A stretch of DNA of 64,000 nt from Cenococcum geophilum. Taxonomy: Eukaryota. Every line of letters begins with the position of its first letter. The stretch's first letter is position 1. Positions 16,136-53,924 of this stretch are shown here, one piece after another. Both the position numbers and the translations under genes were made by a program. The stretch covers positions 2,604,001 to 2,668,000 of the forward strand of contig CP158635.1 in the NCBI GenBank assembly GCA_050273025.1, in the 5' to 3' direction. The notes below the pieces were generated by a model. It was not told where the DNA came from. It made no database searches and saw nothing but the letters and a program-made list of their open reading frames with translations.

Positions 16136-16614
16136 TGTTATAGTAAAAAATTAAACTTAATAATAAACTTAATTTAATTTTACTACCTGTAATTAGGGTT
16201 TTAGTATTAGAGCGTCCAAATTCGGATAGTTTAGACGCTGCTTTTAAAGGCTCTAACACTACGTCGAACCCCGTAACCCCTGCCACCCTGGCGTGTTACC
16301 CCTATTACCGCCCTTACTCCCCCAGTTACTACCTTACCTATAAAACCTACTATATTAGAATACTGCGGCCATTAAAGCGCTTACTCTTTGGGTCCTTAAA
16401 GGTTAACCAGCACTATAGAGAAAGGGTATAAATACTTACGTTAGCCTCTTACCTAACCTACCTCTTCTTTATTTACCGCTATTTACGACTTACCTATCTC
16501 TATTTTAATACCGTAACTCTCTTAACCTAAACTATAGACCTCTTTTCTTATTTTATTCTTTTAGCGTATATCTTTACTCCTCTATTTTATACGCTCTAAT
16601 TACTTTCTACTACT

Positions 16615-16861
16615 TGTCAATCGGTAGTCCGTGCGTCGATTGTAAGAAAAGAATAAGAACTCTATTTATTAAATATGGCTCTAGAGCCTCTATATATATA
16701 TAAGAAAGGTATAGGAAATAGGAAAGACAAGGGGGGTAGGGAGTGGTAATGGAAATAAGGAGTAGGTGACTAAGTTAAGACGGGGTAGGTGACCGAGTCA
16801 ATGACTACGTCAATGGGTAGGTAGCTAAGTCGGTGACAAGATAATCTGATTTAGGTCGACA
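16615..16861. mobile_element. Solo LTR (247 bp)
   Basis: TGTCAA...TCGACA termini with 5-bp TSD CTACT on both sides (16610-16614, 16862-16866) and internal GGGTAGGTGACxxAGT repeats. Confidence 0.85.
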
Positions 16862-17019
16862 CTACTCCTTAACTACTTTATTACTCTTCTGTCGCCGTTT
16901 TATTTATAATTACCATACTCCTTCTATCTATAGCCCTATGTTATTCTATCGCCCTTCTCTACTTCCTTTTTATCCTCACTCTTTTTCTAATATATTATTA
17001 CCTATAGTTAGGCCTATAT

Positions 17020-18330
17020 AATAATAATATAAGTTTAAAGAAAGTAACCCTAATAAAAGAGGGTTAAGTACGTAGGCGATTATTATAAAAATCTTAGTAA
17101 AAGGCTAATACTATAAGGTCTAGTTAAAGTAGAGCCTATAGATACTACTATAACTAATATAGGCATAGTATAGAGGAAATTAAAGCTATAAGTTAAGTAT
17201 TTATTATCCTATAAATTCTACTTATTAGCGATTAGGTATTATAAAGAGATTAACTAAAGTCCTACTAACTTTTTAAAATCTTTAATAGCACGAGATTATA
17301 TAGCGTTCTTTTAATAGGTTTTAGATTACTTCCCTTATATATATAGAAGAAATTTAGTCTCTACTAGTACTAGAGAGTATTTAAGCTACTATTTAAAGAA
17401 TATATAAATAGCTTAATAGAAGAAGACGTAATAAAGGATATTAATAACGTATAGATTTCCTCTATAAAGACTAAAAGCGTTTTTACTAATATAAGTACTA
17501 TAGTATATTAAAATCCTAAGGAAGGGATATAATTTTAATATATTAATATAGGGTAAACTAGTATTATTAATTAACGGCCTTCTTTAAGTATTATACTACT
17601 ACTAGGTATTTAATACCTAGGTATATACTAATAAGGAATAGCGGATACTCCTTACTCTACTATTACTATTTACCGCCTATATAGGGTCTTAGCTATACTC
17701 GCTAGTTAACGCGGCTATAAAGAAGGTCAATAAGGTTATAGGAAGTAATATAGAAGAGGCTAGCCCTTATAACGATATTAATAGGCTTAATAATAGATAT
17801 AAAAGTGCGTATGTAAATAATAGTAAGGATAATAAGGACGAATTCTCTTTTACGGCCGTAGATACGACTAAGTTAAAATTAATACTCTACTAGGATATTA
17901 CGATACTTATAGTACGAGTTAGAGATTATATAGTACTAGCTATATTTATTATAATAATCTACGGAAAGGGAGAGGATTAAAAGCCTTAACTATAGGTATC
18001 CCTATTTCACTTTCCTTTTATTTATAGAAAAACGTATAAAATATATTAAAGTTATAACCCTTTTCTTTATCCTATAGCCCTTATAGTTACTATAGGACTT
18101 TATAATAATACCTTCACTATTTTAAATATATAAGACCCTAAATAGATTTTACGTACTTAGGTACCTGCTTAAAAACCGTATAGAATCTTTAGATAGAAGG
18201 AGAGGAAATTAAATAAACCTATATTTCGCGAACTAGAATATTATAAAGGCTAAACTTTTACGTCTAAAAAGAGCTTTATATCCCTACGCGCTAAAACTTT
18301 TTATCGTTATATAAAGTAACTAGGATATAA
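17020..18330 (+). pseudogene. DUF3435 tyrosine recombinase (Starship captain family), RIP-inactivated and truncated by an LTR insertion
   Basis: De-RIPed plus-strand translation across three short introns gives KSSLHQYWRVFK, YI..L...Y..D....KPVL, L.YHWVFDT..Y..EEQR.LLAL.LLF.AYTGSRP.SLV (~17590-17705), an acidic insert, LYQDI....VR, (H)GKGED.KP (~17960), LCP.AL..A.GL.D.AF, PIFR and Y.KRLG. The sequence stops at the 18331 LTR, before the C-terminal catalytic motifs. Confidence 0.85.
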
Positions 18331-18628
18331 TATTAGTCTTAAATAGCTATTATTATGGCGCTAGTGGAAACTAGTGGATTATAGCTAGTAGATATTAGTA
18401 GATTATAGCGGATAGTCGCAGACAGTTTTATATAGTTTTAGATAGTTTTAGATAGTTTTAAACAATTACCGTTATGTAACTAGAGGATTGTATATAATAT
18501 TAAACGGCGCCGCCCTCCGCTTCCCTTCCTTTCTTTAGCTTTAGATCTTTGTTTATAGACAATCCAATTATATAGGCTTGCGCGACCTATTTGCCGTACT
18601 CGTGCCTTAATTAACTAAGTTGCTAATA
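18331..18628 (+). repeat. Putative 5' LTR of Gypsy H (~298 bp)
   Basis: TATTAG...CTAATA termini (RIPed TGTTAG...CTAACA). It starts exactly where the DUF3435 frame stops and has internal GATAGTTTTA repeats. The partner LTR is not in the window. Confidence 0.6.
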
Positions 18629-20939
18629 TTATCTAAAGCTTATCTACTTTTCTTCCTAAGAAGGAACTTAAATATATTTATAGAACTATAAATAAGAACA
18701 GAATATAAAAATAGACTTAAAGACTATTACCAGAACTTAAAGAATAGAATAGAACTAGAAGAATAGAAAAGAATATTAAGATTTATAGAATATGTATAGA
18801 CTAGAACTCCTATAAAATCCTACTAAAAGTTGCCCTAACGACTATACCATTATACTAAGAAATACTGTGGCTAGTAAAGCAGCTATAGGACCTTTAAATA
18901 CCTCTAACAATAAAACAGCAACTAACTTAAACTTTTAGGTAGAGCTTATAGCAGCTAATGCTAAAAATTAAATAACTTTAAGAGCTACTTAAAGCTAGAG
19001 AACCCTCTATACCTAGTAAAGAGTTATTAAACACCTAAAGACTTACTATAGTCCTTAAAACCCTAGCCTAATATATAGTATTAATATCGTTACAGTCTGT
19101 AAAGGTTATAAACCCTCTATTACTTATAGATAGAACCGACCTTATATTTAATAATTAGAAGCTTTAATTATAGGATAAGCTTAAAGTTAATACGGACTAC
19201 TTCCTTACTACTTAGGCTAAAATAGCCTACGTTTTCGGCCGTACTGGCGGGGATATATAGACGTACCTACGTCCGCGATATGTATAGGACTTAGTAGATC
19301 CCTTCCCCTCTAAAGAAAAGATAATTATTTACTTATCTTCTATCTATAAGGACCTCTTTAAAGTATAAAATGCCTAACTTAATTATAAAAGCCTAAATAT
19401 AAAAATAATAGAGACCTTTTTAGCCTTTTAGACCCACTTTCTATACCTAGCTAACTAGGTTTAAATTCCCTAAAAAGATCTAATGCTAGACCTATTTAAT
19501 AAGCTTACCCTAAACCTATAGCGAGCCGTACTACTAGTTTTTACTACTATATAGACGCTAAAGGAACTTATAGACTAGTGCTTGGCTATTAACTAAGGCC
19601 TCTGCTAAATTAAGGTACGCGCTAAATAGTATAAAGCTAGAAACCTATTAAATTAGACTATAAGTAATATAAGAACGGCTTGTAATACCCTAGCATAATT
19701 AGTAACCCCTATAGCACTACCTACATAGCCTACCGCTAATTTAGTAGCTAGCTATATAGCTAGTCCTACTGTAGGTCTGGCGAATGCTTGGCCTATATAT
19801 AGTAACCCCTATATATAGGCCCTTAGCGATTAAGGTGCTTACTTCTTTTATGGTTAGAAAGGCTACTATATAAAGAATTACCTAATAAATATAAAGGCGG
19901 ATAAGGTCCTATTAATCTAGAAGGATAGTATAGAATTAGAAAAAGAGGAACTTTAGAGGAAAACTCCTCTTTAGGGTTAAAAGGGATTAATATATTATAT
20001 ATTAATCTAGGTAAGCTAATTAGTAGAAGAAGCTGCACTATCCCTTATACTTTATTTTGTAATAGATATTAAGTTTTAACCTCTATTTTAGCTAACTCTA
20101 AAGTAAATGCCTTTACCTTAATAGATACCTAATATACCGTAAAGCTGGCTAACTTTTTAAATATACCTATTAAAGAACTACCTAAACTAATTTCTATTCG
20201 CGGGTATAATAGACGGATAGGGCTACCTATTATAACTCTCTTATAAATTTACCTCCGCGTTAATAGATGAAGGTAGTATAATATCCCCTTTATTATAGAC
20301 CTAGGAAGTTATAATATAATCTTAGAAAGAAAATGGCTAGCCTATTTAGGCTTATAGCTTAATATATAGAGTAGGCGGCTTATCTAGCCTAAAACTTTAC
20401 CCCTAACCCCTTCTTTTATAAAAGAAATTAGTATTATAATAGAAAACCTTATATAGCCCTAGATTAATACTATTTACTAGGTAGATACTATGCGTAGAGA
20501 TAAGACCTTTAAGAAAGATATATAGCTTAACCCATAACGGATCTATATACTACGCCGCCCCTAAACTAGTTATATATACTAAAGACCTAAAAAGCTAGTA
20601 GTAACCTAGCTAAGTTAACTATAGAGAACTTAGGCCCTATATAGCTATAAAGGAAAGCTAGGAATATTAGACGCTATACTAAACTAATAGATAAGAAAAA
20701 TACCTTATGGAAAATAGAACGTAAGCTAAGGAAGACTATAAACTATATACCGTAAAATATAACTTAATAGATATCTATAAAGAAACTAGCGGACCTTCTA
20801 CTAGTTAATATCTGCTATATTAGTGCCGTAGGATTCTACTAGAACTTAGTTTAGCCTAATACTATTACCTTTATAACTAGCTTATACAAAATTAATTAAA
20901 TAATTAAGGAAAAGGAAAGCGAACTTAGTAGATAAAAAA

Positions 20940-21333
20940 TGTAACGAAGCCTTGTAGGAAATACTACGGTAGACTTACTAATAGGCTGGGTATATAGAAA
21001 ATAATAAGTTAAAAACATAATAACTAGTAGAGTGGTTGCCTAATAGATTAACTACAAAGAAGAGAACTATCTAGGTAGGGATTGTGGTCCTTTAAATATA
21101 TAATACTGTGCCTAAGAAATGTACTAAGTACGTTAGTACATTAGTACGTTAGTATATTACGTTTTTATGTTTTTATGTTCTTATATTCTAAACTTATAAT
21201 ATAACCGCCCACGTAACTTAGCTACCCCTTATTTTATAGTTTAACTAGTTCTAGCACCTCTTATGCTTTTACTACTAGTCCATTTATATCTCTCCTTAAT
21301 AGTGCTACTACTATTAATATAAGGTCCGTAATA
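20940..21333 (-). repeat. 3' LTR of Gypsy B
   Basis: TGTAACGAAGCC...CCGTAATA; aligns with 44564-44897 plus 50189-50252. Confidence 0.9.
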
Positions 21334-21407
21334 CTATCCCCCTCCTCTTTATCTTTATTCTTAAAGATATCTCCTATCTTTAAATTAATAACCTTTATTG
21401 TTTCTAA

Positions 21408-22030
21408 TATCTCTTATTAAATCCTTTATATTTAATTATTATAACTAGCTAGTAATATTTATTCTTTTACTTAGTAAAGTTATGCTATTCTGTTCTTATT
21501 ATACGGAGAAGAAGTTAGTATATATTATAATCGCGGCTCTATTTAGTCGCTAACCTTTTTTTTATATTAAGTATACGTAAGCAAATATATAATTATCCTA
21601 TAATATTTAATCCGTTTCTAATGCTAAGTGTATATATCTTATTACCCTTTATAACCGTTTAGTTTTTTATTTAATTAATCTTAGGGTTTTATATATTAGT
21701 AGCGGCTAAAAGATTAAAGAGTAAGCTAGTTAAGGCCCTTGCTAAAGTTTAACGCCGTTTTAATAAGGCGTCTTAGGCTCTAAAGGCTTAACTTAATACT
21801 TATACTTAATTATCTTGCTTAATAAAGGTTTATAAGAAGGTACGCTCTAAAGAGTTTTGTTTAGTAAAGTAAGGTCTCTTTAAGCTTAAGGTAAAGGAGG
21901 CTAAAAAGGATTCTAGTTAAGAAGAGGTAGAAACAACTTATACGCTAATAGTAGATCCCCTAGATAACCTGGCTTATTTATTACCTTTAACTAATCCCTT
22001 TATCTTTAACACCTTTTTAATATTACCTAA
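21408..22030 (+). pseudogene. Antisense accessory gene of Gypsy B: Zn2Cys6-like six-Cys cluster plus coiled coil (RIP-mutated, one putative intron)
   Basis: The frame from 21482 has TGT then five TAT codons spaced x2-x6-x13-x2-x8. A putative intron (~21629-21684, GTATAT..CTTAG) is followed by a heptad-like L/E/K/R-rich stretch. Ends are approximate. Confidence 0.65.
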
Positions 22031-23088
22031 CCTTTTTTTTTTTAAATACTTCTATACCTTTTCTATAGCCTTTTTTAGGTTTTATAATAGCTCCTAGGTA
22101 GTCTTATTATAGCTTATCTACTTTACTTTATATTATATTTTATTGTTAATATCCTTATAATTAACGATCTTTAAAACTTACTATTTGTCTTCTTCTTGTC
22201 CTCTATACGCTGGCTCTAATATTGCGATATGCTATATAGGGTAGATTTTTATCTTTACTGGTAAGTTAAGTCTATACATAACTTCTAAAATCTTAGCTAT
22301 AATTTTAAATAGCCCCAGTCTAATATAATCTAATTTCTTACTTAGTTGTTAATTTATAAAAAATTTGTATAATAGCTATACTTTATCTCCCTTCTTAAGA
22401 TCTAGTCCCTTAGATCTCTTAGTATTATAGTACCTTTTTATTTTTTATTATACTATTTTTACTAATTCTATAAGGTCTATATAAAGATTTATTAGTGTTT
22501 TTATTCTTTCTTTAGCTATGCTACTTATTTTCTTTACTTATTATAGTAATAATAATATTCTTGGCTTATATCTATAGTTTGCCTTAAATAGTGATATACC
22601 TATTTCTTCTTATGGTGTTATATTATATATAAACTATATAACTAGTAATAACAATACCTAATTATTGTGCGCGTAATTAATATAATATCTTAGATACTGC
22701 TCTAGCGTTTAATTTAATCTTTCCATTTAACTATCTGTCTGTAGGTAATATACTATTAATATTGCTACGCGAACCCCTTATTCCGCTAAAAATATCTTTT
22801 AGAATACTGCTATAAATCTTAAATCTCTATCTAATATAATTTTACTTAGTGCTCCATATCTTATAAATACTTCTTTAATATAGATTTTAGTAATATCCTC
22901 CACTAAGATTTCTTCTGTATATGCTATAAAGTAGCCCTACTTAGTTAACTTGTCTACTATTATAAGGATTATATTATACTTCTATCCGGTAATAGGATCT
23001 CTTAACTTTAGTAACTTAATAATAAAGTCCTATAATATAACCTCCTATAGTCTCTCTGGTATTTTAATAGGTTATAGCCCTCTATATA

Positions 23089-26000
23089 TATAAGGGATAT
23101 TATTGCGGACACCTTGGGCTGCCCTTAGGACAACCCCTAGACGCCCCTTAGATAGTCGCCGGTTACGTACTAAAGGCATATACCCGTAGTATATAGTCTC
23201 CACAATCCCTAAGGCCTTACCTCCTTAAGGATTTGTCTCTCTTACCAATCTATTCTATTCCACAATCATGTCCTTATAGCCCCCTATCTATAAGATCCCC
23301 TTATATTTAAATCCTTCCTACTCTTTTTTAGAAGGGCAGTCGGCTTTAAGGACTAGATTATTTATTTATATCTTTTATTTACAACCACTATTCTTCCTTA
23401 AAAATCTTGTGACGACCTAAACGGAAACTCCATAGGCACCTTATAGAAAGCCGTTATGGTAAGGCAGGAAGGTCCCTCTAATAGCGAGAGATTACGACAA
23501 TATAACCCTCTAGGTAAGATGGCCGAATAAGCCCTAATACCTAGATGCTCTAGGAGCTCAAAGACTTTTACACACCTATAGTCACCGCTAAGGAAAACGT
23601 AAACACCCTTTATAACGGTTATAACGCTGCTAAAAAGTAACTAAAACCCCTCCGGCCCCATCTAGGCTAATTAAAAGATTAAGCGCTAGAGGCGACTTTA
23701 AGATCTTCCCCTAAGCTAGAAATGCTAGAGGAATATACTAACGCGTCCAACTAGGGAACTAACTAGAACCCTTTTAGAAGACCACCGGCCTATAATTAGT
23801 ATAGTGGCGGTATATAGACTACTTATAAGCTAAGCGGGCCTACCCCTTTAGGTAATTTAAACTAACTACTAACTTAAGACTTAAGCCTTATAGGGAAATT
23901 TGCACTAGCTATTGGTACTAATACTACCTCTATAGCCGGAGCTTCCCTAAGGCTAAGGTTAGAAAGTTAAGAGCCTTAAACCGATGTTCTTTAAGACGGA
24001 TATTAGGAAGCTACTATAAGGCTCTTAGAAGCTATACGGGAAGGAGCCACTAATAAATATATTAGAAACCTTTAAGGGCAAATCTATATCTAGCAGGGTT
24101 TAATCTAAGCTAGGTAAATTTTTTTATAACCTAATTAAGGCTAAGGGCTTTTTAGGAGCTACTTAATACCTACCTAAAGAGGTGTGGAAGACCTAGAGAG
24201 TTATCTACGCTATAAACGGAAAAGGATATAGACTAACTAGCTAAGGCCTTTAGTAGTCTAGAACTCCGCTATAAACCTAACGCCTAGCAGTTAGATAATT
24301 GGGTTTGTAAGGTAAACAACTTCTTTAAAATGCTAATAATACGAGATAATACCAAAGAGCGTATATACTGGATTATTAGCAAGATTAAAGACCAATTGCT
24401 AAACTAGATCGCATTTAATTAGCTTAATAAAGAGCAAATTACTATATAGCCACAGCTGTAAACCTTTCTAAAGAAATAGACTTAAGATCTGTATATTATA
24501 TAATATAATAATGCAAAGCTATTCTAGAATAGGATATAGCTTAACCGCTATAACTTTTGCCAGTTTATAAACTTTATAGAAACTTATACTCAATAGATAG
24601 ATCTAGAGCCCTTTAAAAATAAAAATAGTAGCATCTATAAAAAGGAGAAGATTGGGTTTATCTAGGCTAAAATTAAGCTAGTAATTTATAACGAAATAAA
24701 GCGCGTAGAAGCCCTATTGCGGATCACTATATATATGGATTTTAAATAAGCAGTTCTAAACGCTAAAGATATAGTAAGGAACTAGACCTCTTCTAGTAGA
24801 AAGCTAGGGGGTCACTAGAAGCGCGGGCACTTTAATAGTAATATAGGGCAGACCTAACCTTTAAAGAAGCCATTCTTAAAGAGAACTTTAAAAGGGTTAA
24901 AGTTAGGAACCTTAAATAACGGGAAAAACTCCTAGGGCCAACCTAATACCTATCTAGCACCTTTATAGAAACACTTTAAGAAGTTAAGAGAAAACTCTAG
25001 AGGTAGATTCTATTGGAAAAATAAGTAGGGCGACAACTATACTAACAATCTAAAAAAAAAGCCCTAGTTGTGGACCTTTTTTAGCTATAACTAGGGTAAG
25101 ATACGGAAGGAGAGACCCTCTAAATCGCTGTTAAGCTGGAAATAACACTCCCTATAGGTAAGATGTGTTAGTTCTAAGCACTATATAATAGCGGCGCTAA
25201 AATTAATCTTATATAATATAATATAGTAAAAGAGTATAAACTTATCCTATTATAAAAGTGGTAGAGACCTATTATAGGCTTCTTAGATAAGTATTAGATT
25301 AAACTATATAGTGCCTATAAGCTTATAGTATTAGTAGCTAATATACATAACTGCACTAAGGTGGTCGGCCTGTAACCCTTCTAGGCGGCTAACTTTATAG
25401 GTTATAACCTTATCCTTAAATACCCTTAGCTTGCGGAAGCAGATTTTAAGATACGCTTTAAGACTAGAGCCTTTAAATAGTAGAATAATAAAGATTTGGG
25501 AGGGCGTATATTACTAATAAGCCTAAAGGATATTCTAGAGAATGTAGCCCTAGGTAAAATAGTATACGCTCTATACCTAAAGGAGTATTGGATCTAACCC
25601 CTATTTAATAGCAAGATAGGTATAAAGCCTAGTATAGGTAATAACCCCTCTATAACGGAGACTCTATAGGGAACTACTAGATAGGTCGCGGAGATATTAT
25701 AAGGAGGTGGCGATCTTAAGGATCTTATAAGATACTTTAACTGTTATAGGTTACTTTGGCTTAAGTAATATATAGAGAATATACTACGGTATCTCGAGCG
25801 CTGCGTTAAGGATTTCCCTACCCTTTACTGGCTACTATATGAAACGGTGTAACGCACAGTGGCAACCATATATAAGTAACCACTATAGTGTATAACGCTG
25901 CCCGCGAGTATTCTAAGGGAGCTCTGGGACCTACTTAATAATAATATAGAGGATAAACGCGACCCCAATTTGTTAAATATTCTAGTAGCCCTAAGGGACT

Positions 26001-29000
26001 TACTAAGGGTATTTTTGGGTAGGAGAGCTAAAGTCCTACTATAGAACTTAGAGTACGATTATATAATTAATCTAGAAGAAGGCAAATAACTACTAAACCT
26101 TTCTATTTATAACCTCTCGCGTAAAGAGCTTAAGATCCTATAGGAGTACCTTAATAGGTTACTAGAAAAGGGGTAGATCCGGCCTAGTAAGTCGCCGGCA
26201 GGCGCACCGATCCTCTTTATCTTAAAACTAGATAGAACCATAAGGCTATATATAGACTATTACGGTCTTAATAAGATTATAATTAAGAACCGTTACCTAC
26301 TACTACTAGTTAGTAAAATATTAGATTAATTATTTAGGGCGAAGATCTTTATAAACTTAGATCTATAAGACGCCTATTATAGGCTCTATATTAAAAAAGG
26401 GGATAAATAGAAGACCGCTTTTAAGACCTAATATAGCTATTTTGAGTATCTAGTGATACCTTTTGGGCTAGCCAATGCGCCTATAATATTCTAATAATAT
26501 ATTTATAGAGCCTTAGGGGAACTAGTTAACCGCATATATATTATCTATTTAGATAATATCTTAATCTACTTAAAAAAATAAGGATTAATACAAGCAACAC
26601 GTCCGCGAAGTGCTGGAATACTTAGATAATTAGGGCCTCTACGCTAAGGCGTTAAAATATATCTTTAATACTAAGCAGGTTAAGTTTCTAGGTTACATTA
26701 TAACGCCTATAGGTATAGTTATAGACCTAGTACGGGTGTAGATAATTTAGAAGTGGCCAGAGCTAGAGAGCTATTAGGATGTTTAAGTATTCCTAGGCTT
26801 TGCCAATTTCTATAGGCGTTTTATCTATAACTACTTAGATATCGCCTAATACCTATTTAACTATATTACGGAAGCTTCCTAAGACTTAACCTAAGGAGCA
26901 AAAAGCTTAAAGGTGGTAAGGAAGAAAACTAAAAAGGGACTAACTAAATAGTATAAGCTATAGTTATAGCCTAGAAAGGGTTAGAAGGCCTTCTAAAAAC
27001 TTTATATAAAGTTTATAAAAGCTCTATTACTGCGGCATTTTAACCCAGATTAGCTATTAATAATAATTACTAATATATTAAATTTTGTCCTTACTAGTAT
27101 TCTACTATAACCTAATAGGCATTCAGATGCTACCTAGCTCTATTAGAGACTAGTAGCATTTTATAATAGAAAATTCTAAGGATTTAAAGCTAGGTATTAT
27201 ACCTATAATAAGGAACTGCTAGCTATAGTTAACTACTTTAAACAGTGGCAACACTACCTTAAGCACGCGAGCTATACCACTTATATACTCTCAGATTACT
27301 ATAATCTACGCTACTTTATAACTATAAAGGAGCTTATACCTTAATAAGCTAGATAGACAGAGAAGCTTACGCGATTTAATTTTAAGATTAAATATAAGCT
27401 AGGGGAAAACAACCCTACTAATAGACCTTTATAACGGCCAGACTATACCAAAGGCTTTAAAACGGGAGAAGGAAAACGGATAATAGATATCTTACTCCCT
27501 ATATTATAGAACAAGCTCTAGGTATAGAATGCTTAAGCACTTATAGCTCTATATACTAAGTCTTAGGTAGTGTAAGCCCTATTAGTTTTTACTAACATTC
27601 TAGCTAGTACCCGGTCCGTTACTAATAAGGGTCCAAATATACCTAAATAGGACGTTCCTAATATATTCTTGGAACCTAGTAATATACTATCCCCTTAAAC
27701 AAATAGCGAAGCTATAGAGCAATTGGAACTTGGAGCCCTACAATAACTAAAGGACTTTAACTTTATAGTGGCCTTCCTAATATACGCGTATTAAAGAGTT
27801 ATAAGATCTATAGTACTATCTAGTCTTATACTTAGAGTAGTATAGGACAAAACAGCTTTTACCTAAGAACTATTTAAAAGGTTAACGGATTTTATCCATA
27901 AGGTATAACGGAGGGACGCTTTTTATACTATCCTTAATATAGAAGTAGACTGGAAACGTAACGGAAAGGAAGCTACTAGGTGCTACTATTAGGAACTAAA
28001 CCCGAAAGGCCTACTATATAGAGGTAGTAAGGTTTAGGTGCTATAAAAAGCAAATCTATAATAGAAGATTCTTATAAAGAATTATAATAATCCTTTAGGC
28101 GGCCACTATAGTTAAGCAAAAACTGTAGAATTATTTTAGCGCAAATACTATTGGCTAAGGCTTAATTAGGAAGCAAAAGAGTATATTAGCTATTGCGAGA
28201 AGTAGTAAGTATACAAGATCCGTAGGCATAAGCTATAGGGTCTACTTAAATTAGTTCCCCCCGCTAGTAAGCTATAGTAACATTACACTATAGACTTTAT
28301 TATAGATCTCCCGCTATTTAAAGATAGCTAAGGATAAATATATAATTCGGTCCTTATACTTATTAATAGGGTTTTAAAGTATATCTAATACCTTCCCGTT
28401 AATAAGACAATTGACGTATAAGCGCTAGCTAACCTAATTAAGGAGAAATACTTTCTTAAAGTAGATTAGCCACACTCTATTATTACTAATAGGGGTAGCG
28501 TCTTTATAAGCTAGTACTAGTTAGACCTATACTTCCATTTAAAGATAAACTACTATTATAGTATAGCTTTTTATTTATAAATGGATGGGTAAATAGAACG
28601 CTAGATCTAGGAACTAGAGTCTTACCTATAAATGTATTTAAACCACTAGTAAGATAACTAGTATAAGCTACTTCCGTACACGGAGTACGCTTACAATTTA
28701 AAGTAATATATATTATATAAGTATGCACTAATCTAGATTGCCTATAGCGTTTAATTATTTAGGTTTAATAGTATACCTAATAATTACTAGCTAAGGCCGT
28801 ATAATTAGTTATAGGATCCTATTAAAAAGTCTAAGGATATCTACCGGAGAGTATAAAGATACCTTTAGAAATAGGAGGAGTAATGGAAGTATATAAAGCA
28901 GAGCCTATAAGATACCTAAGAGCAGTAGAGACTTTGGTATAACCGTAAGCACTAAGATAAGCATTTTAGAGTAGGTAATAAGGTTTTATTATATTTAACA

Positions 29001-31956
29001 AATATTAAGACCTATTAACTATTAAAAAAGCTTAATATAAGATACCTAGGTCCCTTCTAAGTTAAAGAACGAATTAGTAAGCTAGCCTATTATCTCTAAC
29101 TACCCCCATCTATGGCCTATATATATTTAGTGTTTTATATAAACTTACTAGAGCTATAGTATAGACCACTACTAGAAAAGAACTTCCGTCTAGGCCCAAT
29201 TAAACACCTTAAGGTAGTGGGCGAGCGGTATAAGGTTAAAGCTATACTATATTATAAGTCTGTTAAGAACAAGCTTTAATTTAAAGTTAAATAGCTAGGC
29301 TAGCTTGCTAAGGACTCTATATGGGAACCAGAGGATTACCTTAATTATTATAAAGATATTCTAAAAGAATATTAGGACTAAGGTCTATAATCTATAAGTT
29401 ACAAAAAGCGCTCTAATACTATAGTGTTATTGCGACCTATAAAGAAAGCTTGTGAAAAGAGAAAATAGGTTAAATTGGATATAGAACGGATAGGCTCCAG
29501 AAACTATAGGGATAAGGCTACAGCCTAAAGCAGGACGGGTCCTTAGCCCTTTTATATATATAGCATAGAGTTAATAGGGCATTTTGCTAGAATTGTATTC
29601 CTATTCATTAATCTATACTAGGAATATTATTTTTAGGGCTTCTAAGCCTTTCCTAAAAGCCTTTTAAGGCCTTCCTAAGCACCTAATTAAGGTCCTTAAT
29701 TGCTACTATATAGAAGAATAAATCCCAAATACCTAATCTAAAAAGCCACTATGCCTTACCCTTAGGAGTAGGATTAGTATCTATTAGCTCTTTAAGGGAT
29801 AGCTAACGAGAATAAGATCCAGAACCCTTAGTAGGGGTATAAGTAGGCATAAAAACAGGGGCAAGATAATAAGGTGTAGCTAGAGTAGAGACTCTTAAAC
29901 GCTTAATACTAATATTAGGTCTAAACCAATACTAATAAAGCTCTTAGGGAGTAAGCTTATAGTTAATAAAGACACACTTAAGCTTAGAATAAACAGAGAC
30001 GTTAGCTGGCTAGTATAATCTAGAACTACTAAGGCCTTACTACGGCAACTATTAATTACCTATCCGCTAGGTACCCAAAGGGTAACCTACCTAATACCGT
30101 ATTATATTATACTCTTTTAAAACTTAACGTGTATACGCGAACTCCTTCCTATAGTAGATAGCAACCTTTTTCTTATCACCCTCATCCTGCACCCTATCCT
30201 TAGTATACTAACCTTACTCTTATATTAGGCGTTACTAGCTAGCTTACTAAGAATTATAGGCGGTATAGATAGCTATAGTATAGTCTTAAATACGACTAAG
30301 ACGTTTAGTATTAGCACTAGAATAAGATAAAGCCTAGGCGATATAGTAGTTAAGAACATTAAAGGATTATCACTACTTAGGCCCAGGCTATTAAAGCTAA
30401 AGTTAGTAATAGAAATCTATTAAGGATAGAAAAGCTCACCTTAATGCAACTGCCGCTCTTAGTACGCATGCATTAATTACAAGGACTAAAGGTATTAGAT
30501 CTAATACAGTACGTCTTATTATAAGTCTCCAGAATCCTGTTATTAGATTTCTGGTCTTTTAAAGACATATAGGTAAAATTATTTAGGTAGGACTAGCACC
30601 AGTTACGAGTTAATAGAGGTTAGGGTTTTATATACGGGGGTGGGACTGGGATACGCTATAGAATCTACTTAAAAGAGCAGTTAGTAGGAGAACGAAGAGG
30701 TATATTAAATTATTAATAAAAAAGAAGAAAATCTTAATAATATATTAAAGATACGTCCAAAATTGGACGAAGGTTAGCAATAGGAAGTAAGGTATTAAGG
30801 AAAAGGATTAAGCTTAATAAGCAAAGTGTCTTTATACTTTACTATCTAATACCCTTTTAGTAAATAGCCGCAACCTTGCCAATATAACTCCGTTACAATA
30901 GCGCTATTTAGAAGAAAGAAAACATATATATAAGTTATTTAACTATTACTTCCTTATAAAAACTAACTACGCGGCCAGGGGAAGGCAATTAAGACGTTAA
31001 TTAAAGACGTATATAGGTTAAATTATACCTAACAAACAATACTATAGTATTAAAGATTAATGTTATAGACGCTCTTAATAATTATATAATAGCTACAATT
31101 ACTATTGCGAAATGTCCCTATTTACTAGGTAGTAGAGCTACACCAAATATACGGTATAGGACTACTAGATTTAAAACCACATACACTAAATCTTAGGAGA
31201 TAAGTCTCCTTAATTAACTAATTAATACCTTAACCGCATTTAATAGCCTAAGGGAAGATATAGGAATAATGCGTTAGTAACGTAAAGAATTTATAAAACG
31301 ATTACAGATCACATCTTAATAGTTAAAGACGATGGTAAGCTAAGGCTCTATACGTTAAATCCCATACTAAAAGGTTTTACGGAACTATACTGGAATACTA
31401 AATTATATATAATACTTATAATTAATTATAGACCGGTATAAAGGCTTAGAAGTAGAGTTGTATAAAAATCCCTATATTAGCCTAAGTAGTTACTAGCATG
31501 CTTCCGGTAGGCTTCTAATAGGTTTTTTAGTAATCCTTACGTTTTTTCTCTAGTTATATTTTTTCCTTATTAAGGTTTTTTAGGAGTTTAAAGTAGGGGT
31601 TAGATAGATAGATAATATACAGCGGCATGCCGATACCTCTTTAATATCTCTCTAAACCCCTTCCGAGACGAGCCTTTATAATCTCCCTACTATAAGGTAA
31701 TAGCGATTAGGGGCTAACTATAAGAAGGGGGAGAGGTAATATAAGGGATATTATTGCGGACACCTTGGGTTGCCCTTAGAATAACCCCTAGACGCCCCTT
31801 AGATAGTTGCCGGTCACGTACTAGAGGCATATACCCATAGTATATAATCTTTACAATCCCTAAGGCCTTACCTCCTTAAGGATTCGTCTCTCTTACTAAT
31901 CTATCCTATTCTACAATCGTGTCCTTATAGCCCCCTGTCTATAAGATCCCCTTATA
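23089..31956 (+). mobile_element. Ty3/Gypsy chromovirus A (8.9 kb), RIP-mutated
   Basis: 217-bp LTRs 23089-23305 and 31740-31956, TSD ATATA, PPT AAGAAGGGGGAGAGG before the 3' LTR. Gag from ~23520, RT YLD(N)IL ~26545, RNase H, integrase ~28050-28700, chromodomain ~29225-29370, and an extra ~2.2 kb before the 3' LTR. Confidence 0.93.
29608..30703 (-). pseudogene. Antisense accessory gene of Gypsy A with a six-Cys cluster (RIP-mutated, one putative intron)
   Basis: The minus frame from 30703 (ATA for ATG; MP.RSP..) has C-x2-(Y<C)-x26-C-x8-C-x2-C-x7-C at 30598-30446. A GTGAGC donor at 30439 with CTAAC branch and TAG acceptor follows, and coding-like sequence continues to ~29608. Confidence 0.55.
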
Positions 31957-32809
31957 ATATAGCTTATACCTTATTAGTTTATTCCTTTAATAATTTAGAT
32001 ACTCTTTTATTCCTTTTTTAGTAATGTTTTAGATTTTATTAATAATATATTCTTTTTAAAGTCTTAATACTAAGCCTATCGCTCTATTGTGTCCTTAAGT
32101 TATTCCCCTATAGAAATCTTCTATAAAATGCTCTGTAATACTTCTTAGGATATACTTTACTTCTTAATTCTTATATATATCTATTTATAGATCTTCTAGC
32201 TATACTTTTAGAATTCTTTATATCTAAAAGCTCTTTAGTGTCTTATAGACTTTTTCTAGTTTATTATCCTCTTAAGTTGCTATTAGCTTAGGGTAATTAT
32301 ACCTAATCTATTCTTATCTTTGCGTAATATAGCTCCTAATAGTTTCTCGTTATTTTATAGTTTAGCCTTTTTACTAAGTATATCTGCTCTTATATTTTCG
32401 GTTCCTTTAGTATACTAAATTTTAAAATAATATTCTATAAGCATCTCTGCCTAGCTAACTTATTTTTAGTTAAGTTCTTTTATTATTAGGAACCCTATTA
32501 GGTTCTTATAGTCTATCTTAACTATAAATAGTTTCTCTATACCTTATAAAAATATTCTCTATTTCTTAAGTGCTATAACTATACCTAATAACTCCTTATT
32601 ATAGATGTTATAGTTTAGTTCTGGTAGTATTATCTTTTAACTATAATATGTTACTAGATGCTATATATTTTTATACTTCTATAGTAAATATACTCCTAAT
32701 ATAAAGTTTAATACATCTATTTCTATAACTATATCTAGTTCTAGTTAATAGATTTTAAAAATTAGCTCTTAGGTAAATAATTCTTTAAATTCCTTAAATA
32801 GTTTCTTTT

Positions 32810-33078
32810 TGTATAATCACAGCACCTGTCGTACTAACCGCGTGCCTACGCGTTCGGTACGCCAGGTACGCGTTTACGCGTTCGGTGTACTAACCACTCG
32901 CTTACGCGTCTGGTGCACTTATAAAGCACTAACTAATTAGGGGGAGGACGCATTAGTATATAGACTACGTAGTCTACCTCAATACAAGAGACAGTCACCA
33001 TCTAAACAAGTATACGATACTACATGTATTTCGTGCCCGTGGATACGACTCACTCGTGCTATTAAGTTAGTACGAACA
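32810..33078. mobile_element. Solo LTR (269 bp) inserted in the pol of Gypsy B
   Basis: TG...CA termini, TSD CTTTT on both sides (32805-32809, 33079-33083), internal TACGCGTTCGGT-like repeats, and higher GC than its flanks. Confidence 0.85.
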
Positions 33079-35431
33079 CTTTTATTTATTTCCCTATACC
33101 TACAGTTTCTCTTTCTTTATAAGCCTGGTAAACGGTTTAGTAGTTTTAGTTAATAGATTTTAAGGATTAGCTCTTAGGTAAATAGCTTCTTTTACTTATT
33201 TTTCTATACCTATAGTTCCTTCTTCTTTATAAGCCCAGTAAACGGTTTAATATTCTTTAATTACTATACTATAAACCTTCTATAATAGTTACAAACCCCT
33301 AAAAATAACCTTAACTACATTATATTCTCTAGTTCTTACTAACTTACTATAGCTTTAATATTCTTTAGGTCTATACTAATATAACTTAATTTAATAATAA
33401 ATTTAACGAAATTAGTTTTTCTAGTAAAGAACTCGCATTTTTTAATTGCTACTAGTATCTGTTTTTCTTATAGTCTCCTTAAAACCTATTTAATGTGTTC
33501 TCTATATTCTTCCTTAGTTATTAAGTAGATAATAATGTTGTTAAGGTATACTATAATAAACTTATTAAGGTATTCTCCTAATATACTATTAAATCACTTC
33601 TAAAACGTTACTAGTATATTTATAAGTCCGAATTATATAACTAATGGCTTATATAGCCCTTTCTTTAACCTAAAAGCTGCCTTTCTTAATTTTAATCTAA
33701 TGGTATACCTATCTTAGATCTATCTTTATAAGGATTTACGTATTACCTATCCTGTTTTAGATTTTGCTAATTATGGGTAAAGGATACTTATCCTTTTAAG
33801 TAATACTATTTAACTATTTATAGTTAATATATAGCCTAAGTTTTCCGTTCTTCTTTAGTACGAATAATACTAGATATTCTGCTAATAACTATAATAGTCT
33901 AATATATCCCTTTTATAAGTTTTCCTAGATAAACTCTTTAAGTGCTCTTACCTTTTCTTAAATAAGCTTATAGGTTGGAAAGAACCTTAAACTTATTTTT
34001 AGTTCTAAGTCTATCTTATAGTTTTATGCTATATAATCTGCCAGCTTTTTACTTTCTAGGCTTTATAGTTTCTTGCTATACTTATAGAATCTCTTTAGTA
34101 TATAACTTAAGCCTTGCTTAGTCTCTTTATATATTACTCTAACTTAGTACTATACTATCTTAGTTTATTATTATATCTTATAGCGTTAAGTATCCCTAAT
34201 ATTAACCTATTTTATAACCTAATTAATTCTTGGATTATATTTCTATAACTAAGGTATATTTATTACTGCCTTATCCCATCCTAATAGTAGGATATTAAAA
34301 GATATCTTAATTTATCTTTCTTTAATAGTTATCTATATAGGTTCTGTTTTAAGGTTAATAATACCTCCTTTATAGGCTATTAGATCTCCTAAGATTATAA
34401 TTAATAGGTAAGGGTACTCTTTCTATCTATAAGGTAGTCCCAATTTTTTTACTGCTATTAGTAAGATGTGGTTCCTAATTACTCCACTATCTATTAATGC
34501 TTTAAACTATTAATCTTACTAATTAACTCGTAAATTTAGGTATTGTCTTTAAATTCCTTTAAGGGTCTAAGGCTCTACTATTAGCTCCCTTTAGTTTTAT
34601 AGGTCTCTACTTTTCCTAACTATTAGCTACTTAATCTTACTATACTCGGCTTATTTTTTAGCCAATGCCTAGTTTATTTTTTATTTTTAATATACTATAA
34701 ACACATATTCTCTAGGCATTTTTACTACTATTATCTATTTAAGTATTCTTCCGTAAGGAATCTTTTTGGTTAAAGTATTAAGTCTCCTAACTTCTAGACT
34801 TCTACTAGATACTATCTATATATATACTTAGTATTTTTATACTATTACTCTTTTAGTGCCTAATATATTCTTATAGGGTACTTTTAATTCTTTTTTTTAG
34901 ATTTTTATATATATAATATATATCGTCTATATATACAATCTATAATAGTATATAATGCGCTAGGTGCTTTAGGTTAACTCTTAACTTATTTTTATCCTTA
35001 AGTTTAAACCTCTATTATGTTAATCTAAACGTTATAACTTTATTCACAAGTACTAAGATTTACTTTTCGCTCCTCTAGTTCTCTAACCGTTCCTTTAGAT
35101 CCTTTAATATTATAATAAAGGCTCCCTTAATATAATTTATAGCTTTTTCCATAATAGGGTGGTTCTAGATAACTCGCTTATCTAACTATATATAGAAATC
35201 TTTCTACTTATCGTTATATAGTTGCCTATACTACTTTTAGTATAGCTATTAGAGTATATATGGCTTTTCCGTAAGGAAGTATCTTCTTTTATATATTATT
35301 CTTTAAACCTAGTAAGGATTTCTAGATCCTCTTCTTGTTCCAGTTTAGTAAGCTATTTTACTTTTAGCGTGCCCATCTTAAGCCTATTAGTTATTCTTTA
35401 TGTAGGTGCTCTATCTTTAGTACAGCCTAGT

Positions 35432-38400
35432 TGTCACAGCACTAACCTATCTTATACTATTTCCTACTGTTGGCTAGCCCACTACTAGCGCCTTGGCGGC
35501 TGGCCCTACTATCTATATATAATACCCCTTTCGCCTCTTCTCCTCTTTATACCATAACGTAGTTATTTGGTCTACTTTACTGCAGCACCGTAACAGTTTG
35601 TGGTATCTCCTCTTGCGCCCTATCGCGATCTTTATCTTTTTAGTTTACCGCCTTTGTCTATAGTCTCTGTTTTTCCCAGTATAATTGCAACCTGGCGTGA
35701 CTAATAACGCTATACTATAGTCTTAGCATAGCCTTAGTATAGCCTTAGTATAGTCCCAGATAGTCTTAATAACCTTAGTATCACAGTTAGCCTTATAAGA
35801 TTTCAATTGCCCTACCTAGATCCCTTGGAATGGGCGACCAAAATATAAATAACACCCCGTTAACGAATACACGCGAAGCACTCGCCTGCCTCTTTAATAC
35901 TACCTATACTAACATCGCCTAGGCGATTAGGAACGGTCCTGAGTACCCTAAGGACCTTAATGTGGTAAAAACCTTCTAGCACTTCTCTATATGTACAACC
36001 TTTTTAACTAGCGTTAAGAGCGGTCTCTAAATGGTCTACGACGAAGGTTGAGCTATAAAGTCCCAACTTAAAGAAGCTTAGTATAGAATTAACTCCCTTA
36101 TAACGCCTAAACTATGTATATAACGATACGAATAGTAAGCTTTTGTATATACCGAGACTATACAAAGTCTAAGCTCTTAGATCGCTATACTTACTTAAGC
36201 TATTACCGATAAGAACACAAACCCTATAGCTAGCTCCCCTCTTCTAGCTAAGCCCTATAGGAAAAGCGTGAAGCAAAAGATCTAACCCTATTTAATAGCA
36301 AGGGATTACTAATTAAAAAGCAAGAAAAATTTAAAATATAGGAAATAAAAATCTAAGGTGTTTTCTGGAGGGATGTAAAGTACTTTAAGACCCTAATAGA
36401 TGAAGTCCTCTATATATTAGATATGCTAATAGATAAGGCCTATAACTATGTTAAATATAGCCTTGATATGCTATGTATATACCCAAACAATTTAAGTAAA
36501 TAGACCTTTTCTAACTGAGAATCTATGTTTATATATATAAGAAGACACTATAAGACTATAGATATAACCTAAGCGGCTAAAAATAAGTTGGATACTTTAT
36601 ATTAAGGCGAGCGTAACTACTAGTCCTAGAAAGCAGAGCTTAATAAGTTAATAATTAAAGCAAATAAGACTAAGGAATAAAAGGTGGATTTGCTTAAGCA
36701 GAATGTTTCCCCTAAAATAAAGGACCTAGCTCTTACCCTTAGCCGCAAGATCGATAATGCTAACTATAAGGGCTGGAGTAAGCAAATGGACGTGTTCGCT
36801 TATAACCTATAGAACTATGCCTACTATACTAAGCTAAATGCCGCCAAGCTAAATACCGCTAGTGGATATCGACCTGCATTACCTAATAATAATACTTTAG
36901 CACTGGTACTATAGAATAACCTAATAGACCTTAACGCCGTTAAATTTGGCGGCGGTAGTAGTAACCTCCCTAATAATGTCTAAAGATATCGTATAGATAA
37001 TAAACTCTATATAGTATATGGCCAATCTAGCCACTAGAAAGATGCTTATAACCCCTAGATAAACCTAAATCCCCTTCTAATACTACTACGCTAACCCCCT
37101 TCTAGCTGCGGCGGATTCTTTAGTAGAGGGGATGGTAATTAAGGCGGTAACTAAGGATAAGGACGCGGGTTTGGATATAGAGACTTGCTCCTATAATTTC
37201 CCTCCCTAATATAGCCCTAGCTAATGGTCCCGTATATAAACTATGGATAAATACTCTGTACTACTACTAATTGTAAGACCGGCTATATTATTGGAGAAGT
37301 ACCCCCTAGCATATATATACCGTTAGAGACTGATATATTAGGATATACTAGCTAAGACCACAGCTATTAGCTAAGCCCTATAATCTAGTTATTAAAAGGC
37401 TAACCTTTGGACTAAGTCGCCTTTAAGGGTTAGAACCATACGGGGAGGAGGATAAAAGGATTAGATTTATACTATTAGATTAGTTAAACCTTGTTTTAAG
37501 CTAGCTGGCATTTAACCTTAAAATAGTAAATAATAATAGAAATGCCATCCTTATTTAGACTTACCTCTCCTTACCGTGTAACCTACTCCTAGAAGTCTTT
37601 ATTAAAACATTAAGCCTTATTAATAGTGGTAGTATAGTACTATCGTTTATAGACGAAGACTCGCTTATAAAAAAGTATAATATTATAATAAAAAGACTCC
37701 TAGTTTTAAAACCACTCCGCCTTACCAACGGATTCCTATCTAGCTTTATTACCTATTACTTTATAGTAAAAATAATAATTGGCTACTATACAGAATCTAT
37801 GCTTTTCTATATTATAAAGTTATCACCCTTAATACCAGTAATTCTTAGAATGCCCTAGCTTAAAAAGTATAACTTAAGAATAGACTTCCCCGTTCTAGAG
37901 CTTAAGTTTAACTCTAATTACTATGCCTATAACTATCTTTTATAGCACATCCCTAACTATAACCGAGTAGTACTATACGGACGCATTGTATGGCTAACGC
38001 TTAGATACCGTTAGCTAATAATAGAAGAGGTACCTAATATTGGCGAGCTAATATATGCAGTAAACGAAGCGGAGATTCTGGAAGATTGGATTACCGCTTT
38101 ACCCCTAAAAATATAAACACCGCTAGAACTATAAGTCCCCTATATACACCCGCTTAACCTAGGCTAGCTAATAAGATATCTAACTTAAAGTTATTTGCTA
38201 TACGTATATGCGACCGCACGTATAACAGCTAAAGGTATTATATCTAAGACTAAAACTAGAGCAATTAAGACCTTCCCCTTATAACGCCTAACCTTACACC
38301 CATCTCCCGCGCGTACTGTATAGGGCCGCCGCCTTGCTTCCGCCCCCCTAGGCTAACTAAGCTGTATTAGCCTAGCCGTAGTACTAGAGAACAAAATACG

Positions 38401-42347: not shown

Positions 42348-45209
42348 CTAGTATACTAGATCTCTAGTCTAGTTTCTATTCCTACTATACAAAGATTCTC
42401 TATCTAAATTCCTCTATAGTTTCCTTTATATTTTATCTTATATGTATATCCTTAAAGTCCTCTTACTTTATAATCTTATTATTATTTTTGTTAATAGCCC
42501 TTATTTATACTTTAAAACCTTAGTTTTATAGGATTTTTAACCTTAAGTTTGCTTTTTTCTTAAGCTTAGCTCTAGCCTTAGTCCAATTTGGCTTTTATAG
42601 TATTTTTATCTTATTTTAAAAATATTAAATTTTACTTATCTTATCTTAAGAATCTTATGCCTTTAGAAAACTTCGTCCTAAACTTATTTATATATTACTA
42701 AACTAAGCCATTACTCTGCTCTATTAGTTATTATCTATTATAGGTTCTTAAGCGTGTCTTATCCCGTTTTGGGAATTTTAAGCGTTTTTTATCTCCTTTT
42801 AAGATTTTTAAGCCTTTAGCCTTTTACCTTTATTAAGTAATAAGTTAGTACTAGTAGTTATCTGCTTGCTTAATCCCTTATATTAGGTATTTCTCCTTCT
42901 GTCTTATAAAGCGATAAATGCCGTATTTAATAGTGTTATAATTTCTATTACTAATCCTTACTTTATAGTGGTTTTAGTCTCTACTTCTAATATAACTGTT
43001 CTAAGGTCTATACGCTCCTAGTAAGCTACCTTTATTACCTTATTATTAGTAAATATTTCGCCTATATTAAATTTATTATCTTTAATATCCGATTTATATA
43101 ATAGTTTATTAGTGTCTTTAAACTCTAAAATCTTTAGCTCTTATAGCTAGTAGCTTACGCTATACTTAGCGTCCTTATAAATTTGGTATATATTATTATA
43201 GTAAAACGCAAAATACTTAATTAAATATTCTTTTATTTCTTATAGTGTACTATTATCCCTCTATATATATATACCGTCTGCTAGTCTAGTTTCCTTTACT
43301 ATATAGTTACTCTAACTACTTTTATAGTCTTTAGCAAAATAACTCTATTTTCTATAATTTATATAAGCTCCTTTTTTAAACTACTTGTCTTGCTATAGAC
43401 TCCGCCTAAACGTCTTCTACTATTAAGATTCTTAGTTTAGCCTCTACTCTTTAGTCCTTAATTGCTTAATCCTTAACCTTTAGGTTTCTATAGTTTCTTA
43501 TTTTATTTTTTAGATTCTTTAGTACCGCCTAGGTCTATTAGTTCTGTACTATACTATAGTTTTTTATTTTAACTTTATTATTGCGTGCTCTGCGCCTTAT
43601 ATAACTATAGAACTCTATTTTAACCTTTCTTAGTCTGTTCCCTTTAGTAGATTCTATTATCGATTTTAATTACTTAATTAATTAGTTTCCGCATCTTTTA
43701 TTAGGATAATCGCGTTCTAGACTTTCACTTTAAGTCTTTATTTATACTATACTATAAGCGCCTTATCGTTCCATTTGACCTATATAGCTAATATTTAAAA
43801 CTACGTTGTATACTCAATTGCTAAAGTTTATTATATTAGGTTTTAAAGCCTTTGTTTTACTATAGTAGTTACTTTTAAGTTCCGAAATATCTATATTAAT
43901 TATTCTATAAACCTGTTCCAGCTAACGAATATATATTATACTTCTTAATTAGTAGTTACTATGCTGTATTTCTATACTTCTATAAGGTAAGATTTAAACT
44001 ACTTAAGTGCTCTCCCCGTTAGGAATAGTCCTATATAGGCTACTTAGTCTATAGCTATTGCTAACCTTTCTCCTTTCTATATAACCTTAAAGTGCATTTA
44101 TATAAGGAATCCTTTAAGTTTTAACTTCTCCCCTAAGAATCGCTTAATTAATAGTAGCTTAACTTTAGCTGCTCTAATCCCATTAATCTTTTCTTTAAAT
44201 ATCCTGTTGTTGTCTATTAATTAATTAACTATTTCCTATAACTGTCCAACGGTAACTAGCTGTAAGTTAGTATTTATTATACTAGTGTCGTTACCTAATC
44301 TTAAAGTAGTTGCCTCTATTAACGGCGTTATCCCTTAACCCGCTGGGGTGTAATGCTAAGCTGCACCGTGTATAAACACCGTACCGAGCTATACAAAGAA
44401 CCTTATGTTACTGCAATTCTCATTACGGAGGCTCGAATAAGAGCTTCCTATTAGCTAGATTCTTATCGATAACATAGGACCCGAATCAGCAGGTTAAGGG
44501 ATAGCTACTGCTTTTAGTAGTATATTATTTAACTTATTAATACCGTAACCTTAGTAGTAAATATATAACGAAGCCTTGTAGGAAATACTATAGTAGACTT
44601 ATTAATAGGCTAGGTATATAGATAATAATTAGTGGAGTGGTTGCCTAATAGATTAACTCTAATTATATTCTAAGATTTACTATAAAGAAGAGAACTATCT
44701 AGGTAGGGACTGTAGTCCTTTAAATATACAATACTGCGCTTAAGAAATGTACTAAGTATATTAGTACGTTAGTATGTTAGTATGTTACGTTTCTATATTC
44801 CTATATTCCTATATTCCAAACTTATAACGTAACCGCCTACGTAACTTAGCTACCCCTCATCCTATAGTTTAACTAGTTTTAGCACCTCCCGTACTTCTGT
44901 TAGATAATCTATATTCTTGAAGGCGTAGGACGTATACGAGTTATGTGCATTGTAAATATCTTCGTCTAAGCCTAGGGGCCCTAAGTCGACCAACCATTAA
45001 GACACGATTAAGATCATTAATCAATTAACCCATTTTATCAATGAATAGCTCTATATAAGTTATCTGACAGTTATAAGCCCGGTCCGCCGACACAAGAAGC
45101 TATTCAGCTATTACTTAATTATTTAAAGAAATTCTACCTTATCGTTAGACTCTGACACCTCATCGTCATAAGACGACCCTGATCGAAATCCTACCTTAAT
45201 TATCACAGG

Positions 45210-53561: not shown

Positions 53562-53880
53562 TCTACCTATTTACCTATTGACTTACCTACCTGCCTGCAT
53601 CGCCTACCTGTCTGCATTGCCTACCTATCTGCATTGCCTACCTGTCTACATCGCCTACCTGTTTGCATCTGCCTACCTGTCTATATCTGCCTACCCGTCA
53701 GCATCTACCTACCTGTCTGCATCTACCTACCTATCTGCATTTGCTTGCCTATCTGCATCTACTTACCTATCTGCATCTGCCTGCCTATCTATATCTACTT
53801 ACCTGTCTGCATCTACCTACCTATCTATATCTACCTACCCGTCAGCATCTACCTGTTTGTGCCTACCTGTCTGTGCTACC
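53562..53880. repeat. Minisatellite 1, ~18-bp unit (ATCTACCTACCTGTCTGC-like)
   Basis: Directly visible tandem array. Confidence 0.9.
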
Positions 53881-53924
53881 TTGATTCGATTAATCGATCG
53901 AATCGTTTATAGTGTTCGCTGGCT

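Follow-up and report, generated by a model that had tools for sequence, protein, structure and literature searches.

A probable two-exon antisense gene with a six-cysteine motif in a fungal Ty3/Gypsy chromovirus lineage

An antisense gene placed between pol and the 3' LTR has already been described for a fungal Ty3/Gypsy retrotransposon. In Boty-like elements of Botrytis cinerea and Sclerotinia, an additional gene, brtn, lies in antisense orientation in the gap between pol and the 3' LTR (Zhao et al. 2011, as related in the accessible parts of PMC8365987, PMC7264820, PMC4227169, and PMC5987419). In plants, the LTR retrotransposons Grande1, RIRE2, Retand, and PvRetro13 carry antisense ORFs between pol and the 3' LTR (accessible parts of PMC7264820 and PMC11963269), and these ORFs are described as being conserved in most copies of a family with no function assigned to them (PMC7264820, accessible part).

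Here we describe a locus in a 64,000-nucleotide stretch of DNA from Cenococcum geophilum; this whole stretch is called the window below, and positions are counted from its first letter. The plus-strand region 21407-22068 is probably a RIP-killed copy of the third, antisense gene of a fungal Ty3/Gypsy chromovirus lineage, most likely consisting of two exons, which are referred to as ORF-A and ORF-B. In the relatives of this copy the antisense gene is real: where it lies, how well it is conserved, and its coding signature all indicate this, as do six cysteines and a long helix.

As far as the accessible accounts of brtn allow a comparison, the layout is common to both genes, each lying in reverse orientation between pol and the 3' LTR in a fungal Gypsy element that has a chromodomain, and the two are compared by layout alone. 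The name brtn was absent among the database matches listed for ORF-A and ORF-B, and brtn had no mention in the text supplements of PMC8365987. The plant antisense ORFs, according to the same partial sources, agree with the window gene in position and orientation; however, they belong to another kingdom and to other lineages, and the plant elements include non-chromoviruses, the likeness again being one of layout alone. A further parallel comes from retroviruses. HBZ of HTLV-1 is an antisense, spliced gene that is transcribed from the 3' LTR and encodes a leucine-zipper regulator. In outline, the window gene would resemble it in being antisense, bearing an intron, lying at the 3' terminus of an element that uses reverse transcription, and having a small helical regulator as the putative product, whereas element and protein are unrelated, so that HBZ serves as an analogy only. 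The antisense-gene layout is already in print with brtn, and the window gene has neither a Pfam match nor a database name among the matches listed. Our literature search on antisense or LTR-borne Zn2Cys6 genes found no Zn2Cys6 gene carried by a retrotransposon.

Host element and its setting in the window

From 16 kb on, the window has a GC content of 0.25-0.40, with long AT-rich blocks of RIP-type fungal DNA. The element that hosts the gene ("Gypsy B") is a minus-strand Ty3/Gypsy chromovirus, as shown by its reverse transcriptase, RNase H, integrase, and chromodomain in this order together with LTRs and a polypurine tract. Its 3' LTR (20939-21336, minus strand) was delimited by matches to other LTR copies in the window and in relatives. 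In the self-comparison of the window, 20939-21274 matched 44563-44902 and 21265-21333 matched 50184-50252. The similarity stops at 21333, beside the polypurine tract at 21337-21352, which was read from the sequence as AAAGAGGAGGGGGA on the minus strand directly upstream of the LTR start. Six related loci (L033, L034, L040, L047, L015, and L008) contain a second copy of the LTR stretch about 7.4 kb off, indicating that the full element is about 7.8 kb long.

The pol end was located on the minus strand at 22043-22210 from the minus-frame translations of 52 copies. It comprises a chromodomain and the pol stop, which follows ..KVQEY at about 22043-45. Counted by hand, 42 of the 51 related copies have this stop directly behind EY or KY, and L008, the copy with the fewest mutations, is among them. 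The chromodomain-like segment (..YKVKWIGY..TTWEPL..) was present in the translations of the 52 copies and was named by eye, with no Pfam match. Upstream in pol, the integrase core and SH3_Tf2-1 occupy 22210-23087 (minus strand), SH3_Tf2-1 being matched by Pfam with an E-value of 6e-6 at about 22210-22351 (residues 349-396 of the frame read from 23398). The integrase gene is interrupted at 23087/23088 by a nested LTR element, past which the upstream part of the host element continues on the minus strand (31957-36000). Pfam identified RNase H there at about 32430-32805 (RT_RNaseH, E 1e-13; RT_RNaseH_2, E 2.5e-12) and reverse transcriptase at about 33408-33855 (RVT_1, E 1.4e-6).

The original prediction had placed an antisense gene between the chromodomain and the 3' LTR, and this placement was confirmed by the mapped pol stop (about 22043), polypurine tract, and LTR. 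The gene occupies about 690 bases between the pol end and the polypurine tract, on the strand opposite to gag-pol. ORF-B and pol overlap tail to tail by about 25 bases, corresponding to the last eight or so codons of ORF-B; with so short an overlap, pol does not account for the conservation of ORF-B.

Several other features of the window were noted beside the host element. The nested LTR element inside the integrase gene is about 8.9 kb long (23088-31956, plus strand) and is bounded by LTRs at 23088-23305 and 31739-31956. This LTR pair is 93% identical, and 100% identical when purines and pyrimidines are collapsed, so that the differences are transitions (C<->T, G<->A), which is RIP-type change. 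The other LTR of the Gypsy element (44563-44902 plus 50184-50252) appears to be split by about 5.3 kb of foreign DNA, and the 36-42 kb stretch, which has the opposite strand composition, looks like yet another insertion; if so, the Gypsy element covers roughly 20.9-50.3 kb. A weak match to DUF3435 (tyrosine recombinase; E 0.04) was obtained with a read-through translation of about 18044-18332 (plus strand). Finally, about 53500-55200 forms a GC-rich island (GC 0.58 at 54-55 kb) whose read-through peptides contain long runs of short repeat units, suggesting a tandem DNA repeat.

Conservation in relatives and the six cysteines

When the plus frame of 21540-22100 was read through its stops, it matched P0001, a database ORF of 118 residues (E 1.5e-24, 55% identity), and P0002. 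A profile of three ORF-B sequences then retrieved 78 database ORFs. Metagenome contigs were scanned with 16 aligned ORF-B sequences, which gave at least 599 pattern matches; at least 249 of them were confirmed by tblastn, and 80 loci were fetched. All 80 were AT-rich (GC 0.27-0.47) with one to nine stops in ORF-B, and none of these 80 metagenome loci held an intact element as DNA, every one being RIP-mutated. Fifty-one copies were colinear with 20939-22400 of the window at 72-82% identity, with one diverged copy at 65%. For ORF-A, an alignment of 22 read-through translations was used as the query; at E<=10 it matched 637 of 710 candidate database ORFs, and 120 of these matches were listed. A search of its profile against 1.84 billion cluster representatives yielded 262 at E<=1e-3, with 173 of them reaching E<=1e-10. 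Across lineages, hundreds of ORFs are open, down to about 35-45% identity; an ORF in such a database is open by definition, and this biases what is findable. None of the 10 database proteins that were looked up had a name.

In the reverse direction, tblastn of the stored proteins against the window matched ORF-A at 21407-21691, the best being P0091 (E 1.5e-23). The same search with all stored proteins hit the window at 21407-22037 only, with no second gene copy, and the self-comparison of the window, plain or recoded to purines and pyrimidines, contained no second copy of 21408-22030. A permissive un-RIPed consensus (GC 60%) was over-corrected and served only as a guide to the frames.

Two properties of the alignments indicate that both ORFs evolved as coding sequence. 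Over the 52 copies, stop density was 4.4 per 100 codons in ORF-A and 4.7 in ORF-B, against 6.3-16.2 in the other frames of both strands. In addition, the distance from the SNAK end of ORF-A to LKKVYKKV of ORF-B was 190 bases in 45 cases, 211 in 18, 232 in two, and 160, 187, 199, 202, and 217 in one case each. These eight length classes are all 1 mod 3, and 70 of 72 pairs fit, the misfits being 210 and 213. Since the two motifs were searched with no frame constraint, the length classes count as in-frame evolution.

The copy in the window is itself dead, with 11 in-frame stops, one frameshift, and loss of the ATG, and has no function here. By alignment reading, 10 of the 11 stops correspond to Gln, Trp, or Arg codons in relatives, one or two RIP transitions away, and the remaining one, behind ..DSS in ORF-B, is at a variable site occupied by P, L, Y, Q, or C. 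Four of the six ORF-B stops align to Gln or Trp in P0001 and P0002.

The original prediction had pointed out one TGT and five TAT codons from 21482 at the spacing x2-x6-x13-x2-x8, and this spacing is exact in the window translation. The plus strand from 21482 reads MLFCSYYTEKKLVY.., and its translation is MLFCSYYTEKKLVYIIIAALFSR followed by a stop, PFFYIKYT, a stop, ANI, a stop, and LSY, with three in-frame stops. The codons concerned are TGT at 21491 and TAT at 21500, 21521, 21563, 21572, and 21599, so that the motif of the window copy is C-x2-Y-x6-Y-x13-Y-x2-Y-x8-Y. The 216 bases from 21482 were free of indels in 41 of 51 copies.

Relatives carry cysteines at these positions. Among the ORF-A proteins, 118 of the 120 matches listed had only C or Y at all six positions, and the numbers of cysteines in those 118 proteins were 14, 40, 9, 3, 68, and 57 from the first position to the sixth. 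At the DNA level, the middle G of the six codons survives in 1, 2, 2, 0, 18, and 9 of 51 copies, respectively. As RIP cannot make TGT from TAT, Cys is the older state. Twenty-four longer or less mutated proteins were fetched, and two of them, P0225 and P0238, had all six cysteines in the arrangement C-x2-C-x6-C-x13-C-x2-C-x8-C; at the fourth position, at least 11 of the 24 had Cys and none had Arg or His. Accordingly, less mutated relatives do combine an open antisense frame with Cys at each of the six positions named by the original prediction. As a separate observation, P0094 and P0200 each have two tandem copies of the six-Cys module in a single frame; judged from these protein sequences, the module appears to be duplicated in some copies.

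Gene model and predicted product

Exon 1, or ORF-A, spans 21407-21629 on the plus strand and contains the MPPIRS-type N-terminus and the six-Cys motif; in the window its start has decayed to ATA and five in-frame stops are present. Of 52 copies, 14 have ATG at 21407 and the other 38 have ATA, and two stops lie six to seven codons upstream. The limits given by the original prediction, 21408-22030, lie close to those of the present model (21407-22068), but its ATG was placed too far downstream: the true start is 25 codons upstream of it, at 21407, where the database ORF-A proteins begin with MPPIRS...

Exon 2, or ORF-B, spans 21685-22068 on the plus strand in the frame of 21687. It encodes the long helix and a Pro/Phe-rich tail that ends in ..NT(P/S)IPFL before a TAG at 22066-68, and carries six in-frame stops in the window. 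The window copy also has a 1-base insertion in a T/A run near 22033-22045, and a related contig has one base fewer at 22044. With the extra base of the window removed, the spliced model has 606 coding bases, i.e. 202 codons.

Between the two ORFs lies a candidate phase-1 intron of 55 bases (21630-21684, plus strand), with a GTACGC-type 5' site when RIP is undone, a branch-like CTAAT at 21671-75, 10 bases before the end of the interval, and a TAG 3' site. In the alignment columns of the 5' site, G at 21630 was found in two of 52 copies, one of them the window, and A elsewhere, as RIP would give; T at 21631 was invariant (52 of 52). For the 3' site, A at 21683 was present in 50 of 51 copies and G at 21684 in 48 of 51. 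The 55-base interval shifts the frame by +1 into the helical ORF-B. The GT..AG intron that had been proposed is hence plausible, as both the sequence columns and the frame offset fit it.

Sequencing reads were also inspected. In the raw RNA run X1, which is labelled with the same species, no read covered 21359-22021 of the dead window copy, and the reads of X1, X5, X8, and X2 contained no 21629/21685 junction. The only two read joints, 21205>21280 and 21368>21671, came from one contig each and are unrelated to the candidate intron. Two database proteins depart from the arrangement described above. P0321 has the first half of ORF-A, to the third Cys, joined directly to an ORF-B-like helix, and P0206 runs from ORF-A through the candidate intron into the ORF-B frame with no splicing. 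Neither fits the proposed splice junction, and they may be deletion or frameshift variants.

On this model, the intact product would have about 201 residues, with a basic N-terminus (MPPIRS..SKRR), the motif C-x2-C-x6-C-x13-C-x2-C-x8-C, a long alpha-helix, and the Pro/Phe-rich tail. AlphaFold2 with 16 sequences predicted for P0001 a single helix at residues 2-67 (pLDDT 93-98) and then a disordered Pro/Phe-rich tail. In the best register, the heptad count of this helix gave hydrophobic residues at 11 of 20 a/d positions, which is a weak pattern. Thus, of the heptad-like helix that had been claimed, the helix is long and confidently predicted, whereas its heptad pattern is weak. For P0238 with 99 sequences, the mean pLDDT was 68, and the Cys module (46-61) was all-helical and unusable.

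Alternative readings and possible role

It might be argued that the region holds no gene at all and is a conserved non-coding 3' region, in which the ORFs and the C/Y pattern arose by chance on a pyrimidine-rich antisense strand. Taken alone, the C/Y pattern is indeed at chance level in RIP-mutated DNA: the loosened [CY] pattern occurred four times in six frames of 37.1 kb of such DNA (16400-53500), and in 200 second-order Markov simulations the mean number of matches was 0.98, with 62.5% of the simulations having at least one. Moreover, 62% of the 95 TAT triplets in 20939-22400 have a middle G in at least two related copies and would become TGT on undoing RIP, so that restoring TGT from TAT carries little weight on its own; several database ORFs are also open upstream of ORF-A and on into the LTR. 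Chance of this kind is nevertheless highly improbable as the whole explanation, because the eight length classes all keep the frame, stop density is lowest in the proposed frames even on the purine-rich stretch of ORF-B, and the hundreds of open ORFs in other lineages have only C or Y at the six positions. Another reading accepts both ORFs but treats each as a small antisense frame independent of the other, in which ORF-A would code for about 98 residues and ORF-B, from a separate start, for about 90-120. It would account for the many database ORF-A proteins that read through the putative intron to a stop near the equivalent of 21707, for the openness of the ORF-A frame across that interval (1.8 stops per 100 codons), and for P0001, P0002, P0041, and P0044, which begin with Met at or just before an ALAKVQ motif. 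However, no conserved in-frame ATG of ORF-B was found in the 52 copies of the window's subfamily (codon 21693 being Ile in 25, Val in 25, and Met in one), which is hard to reconcile with an independent ORF. The offset of +1 from ORF-A to ORF-B is preserved in all but two of the 72 pairs, and the GT/AG bounds, the branch-like site, and the 55-base length fit fungal introns. As for the database ORFs, their callers do not model introns, and they cannot show a spliced form. We therefore regard two separate ORFs as unlikely, and a single gene spliced across the 55-base intron is, as far as the alignments can tell, reasonably likely.

The remaining alternative concerns the protein, which could be a true Gal4-type Zn(2)Cys(6) member acting as a dimeric, sequence-specific transcription factor on the LTR of its own element. 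The family has in common with this type (PF00172) the order of the six cysteines, the exact first two spacers (x2 and x6), and a helix after the cluster, to which x2 between the fourth and fifth cysteines can be added. Lys-Lys-Leu ahead of the third Cys and C-A-K-C at the fourth and fifth are features that we take to be Gal4-like, and the long helix, predicted as a monomer, stands where Gal4-type proteins have their dimerisation element. Against these points, the family fails the model. None of 22, 28, and 14 family sequences, P0225 and P0238 included, scored above the PF00172 cut-off, those two giving nothing, and the best score (E=0.16, 12.5 bits against a cut-off of 21, in one of the 28) was aligned to the wrong half of the model. 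Zn_clus had no match in a Pfam search of the six-frame read-through of 16400-23400, the DUF3716 model was absent from the Pfam results at E<=10 on the 22, 28, and 14 sequences, and profiles A5 and A7 found no Gal4-type chain at E<=10 among PDB sequences. The ESM Atlas search with the Cys module of P0238 gave a best score of 0.89 and no family. Zn2Cys6 proteins follow the PROSITE-type pattern C-x2-C-x6-C-x(5-12)-C-x2-C-x(6-8)-C, and the third spacer of P0225 and P0238, with 13 residues, is one above the range at that place; it is also hydrophobic (..VCVAIAAL..). Furthermore, the basic residues between the second and third cysteines are not conserved across subfamilies, and the whole protein has only about 200 residues. 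With no Pfam or PDB match and a hydrophobic third spacer of 13 residues, the gene is not filed as a Zn_clus member, and the Gal4-type reading of the original prediction was not supported, since 64 sequences fail the PF00172 cut-off and the PDB profiles returned no Zn2Cys6 chain. The likeness to the Gal4 type consists in the cysteine order and the following helix, and no more; true membership appears doubtful.

The reading that we prefer is accordingly the antisense third gene of the chromovirus lineage, most likely with two exons joined across the 55-base intron. Such an intron lies in the opposite orientation to the genomic RNA; splicing therefore does not remove it from this template, and it survives reverse transcription. 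The cysteines of the intact product presumably bind zinc, and the product would be an accessory factor that the element produces to serve itself. Its most plausible role may be to act on nucleic acid or chromatin and in this way to regulate transcription or silencing of the element, and we infer that a self-made regulator is the most likely functional reading. A more specific proposal is that this widespread lineage uses a spliced antisense gene, driven by the 3' LTR, to produce a DNA-binding regulator of its own with a Gal4-like zinc cluster, and that this regulator controls or protects transcription of the element. It would then be a transcription factor borne by a transposon and related to the largest family of fungal regulators, though too diverged for the family models; this combination is distinctly unlikely in our judgment.

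LTR retrotransposons are usually described as having gag-pol only, and the lineage described here carries a conserved third gene. It is abundant in fungus-rich metagenomes, with at least 249 confirmed stretches in one scan and 262 cluster representatives. For annotation, this means that the many short "hypothetical proteins" of this family in metagenome catalogues are pieces of a single transposon gene, most of them damaged by RIP. Should the product bind both zinc and DNA, the elements would bring their own regulator with them, which would bear on how fungal transposons escape or tune silencing.
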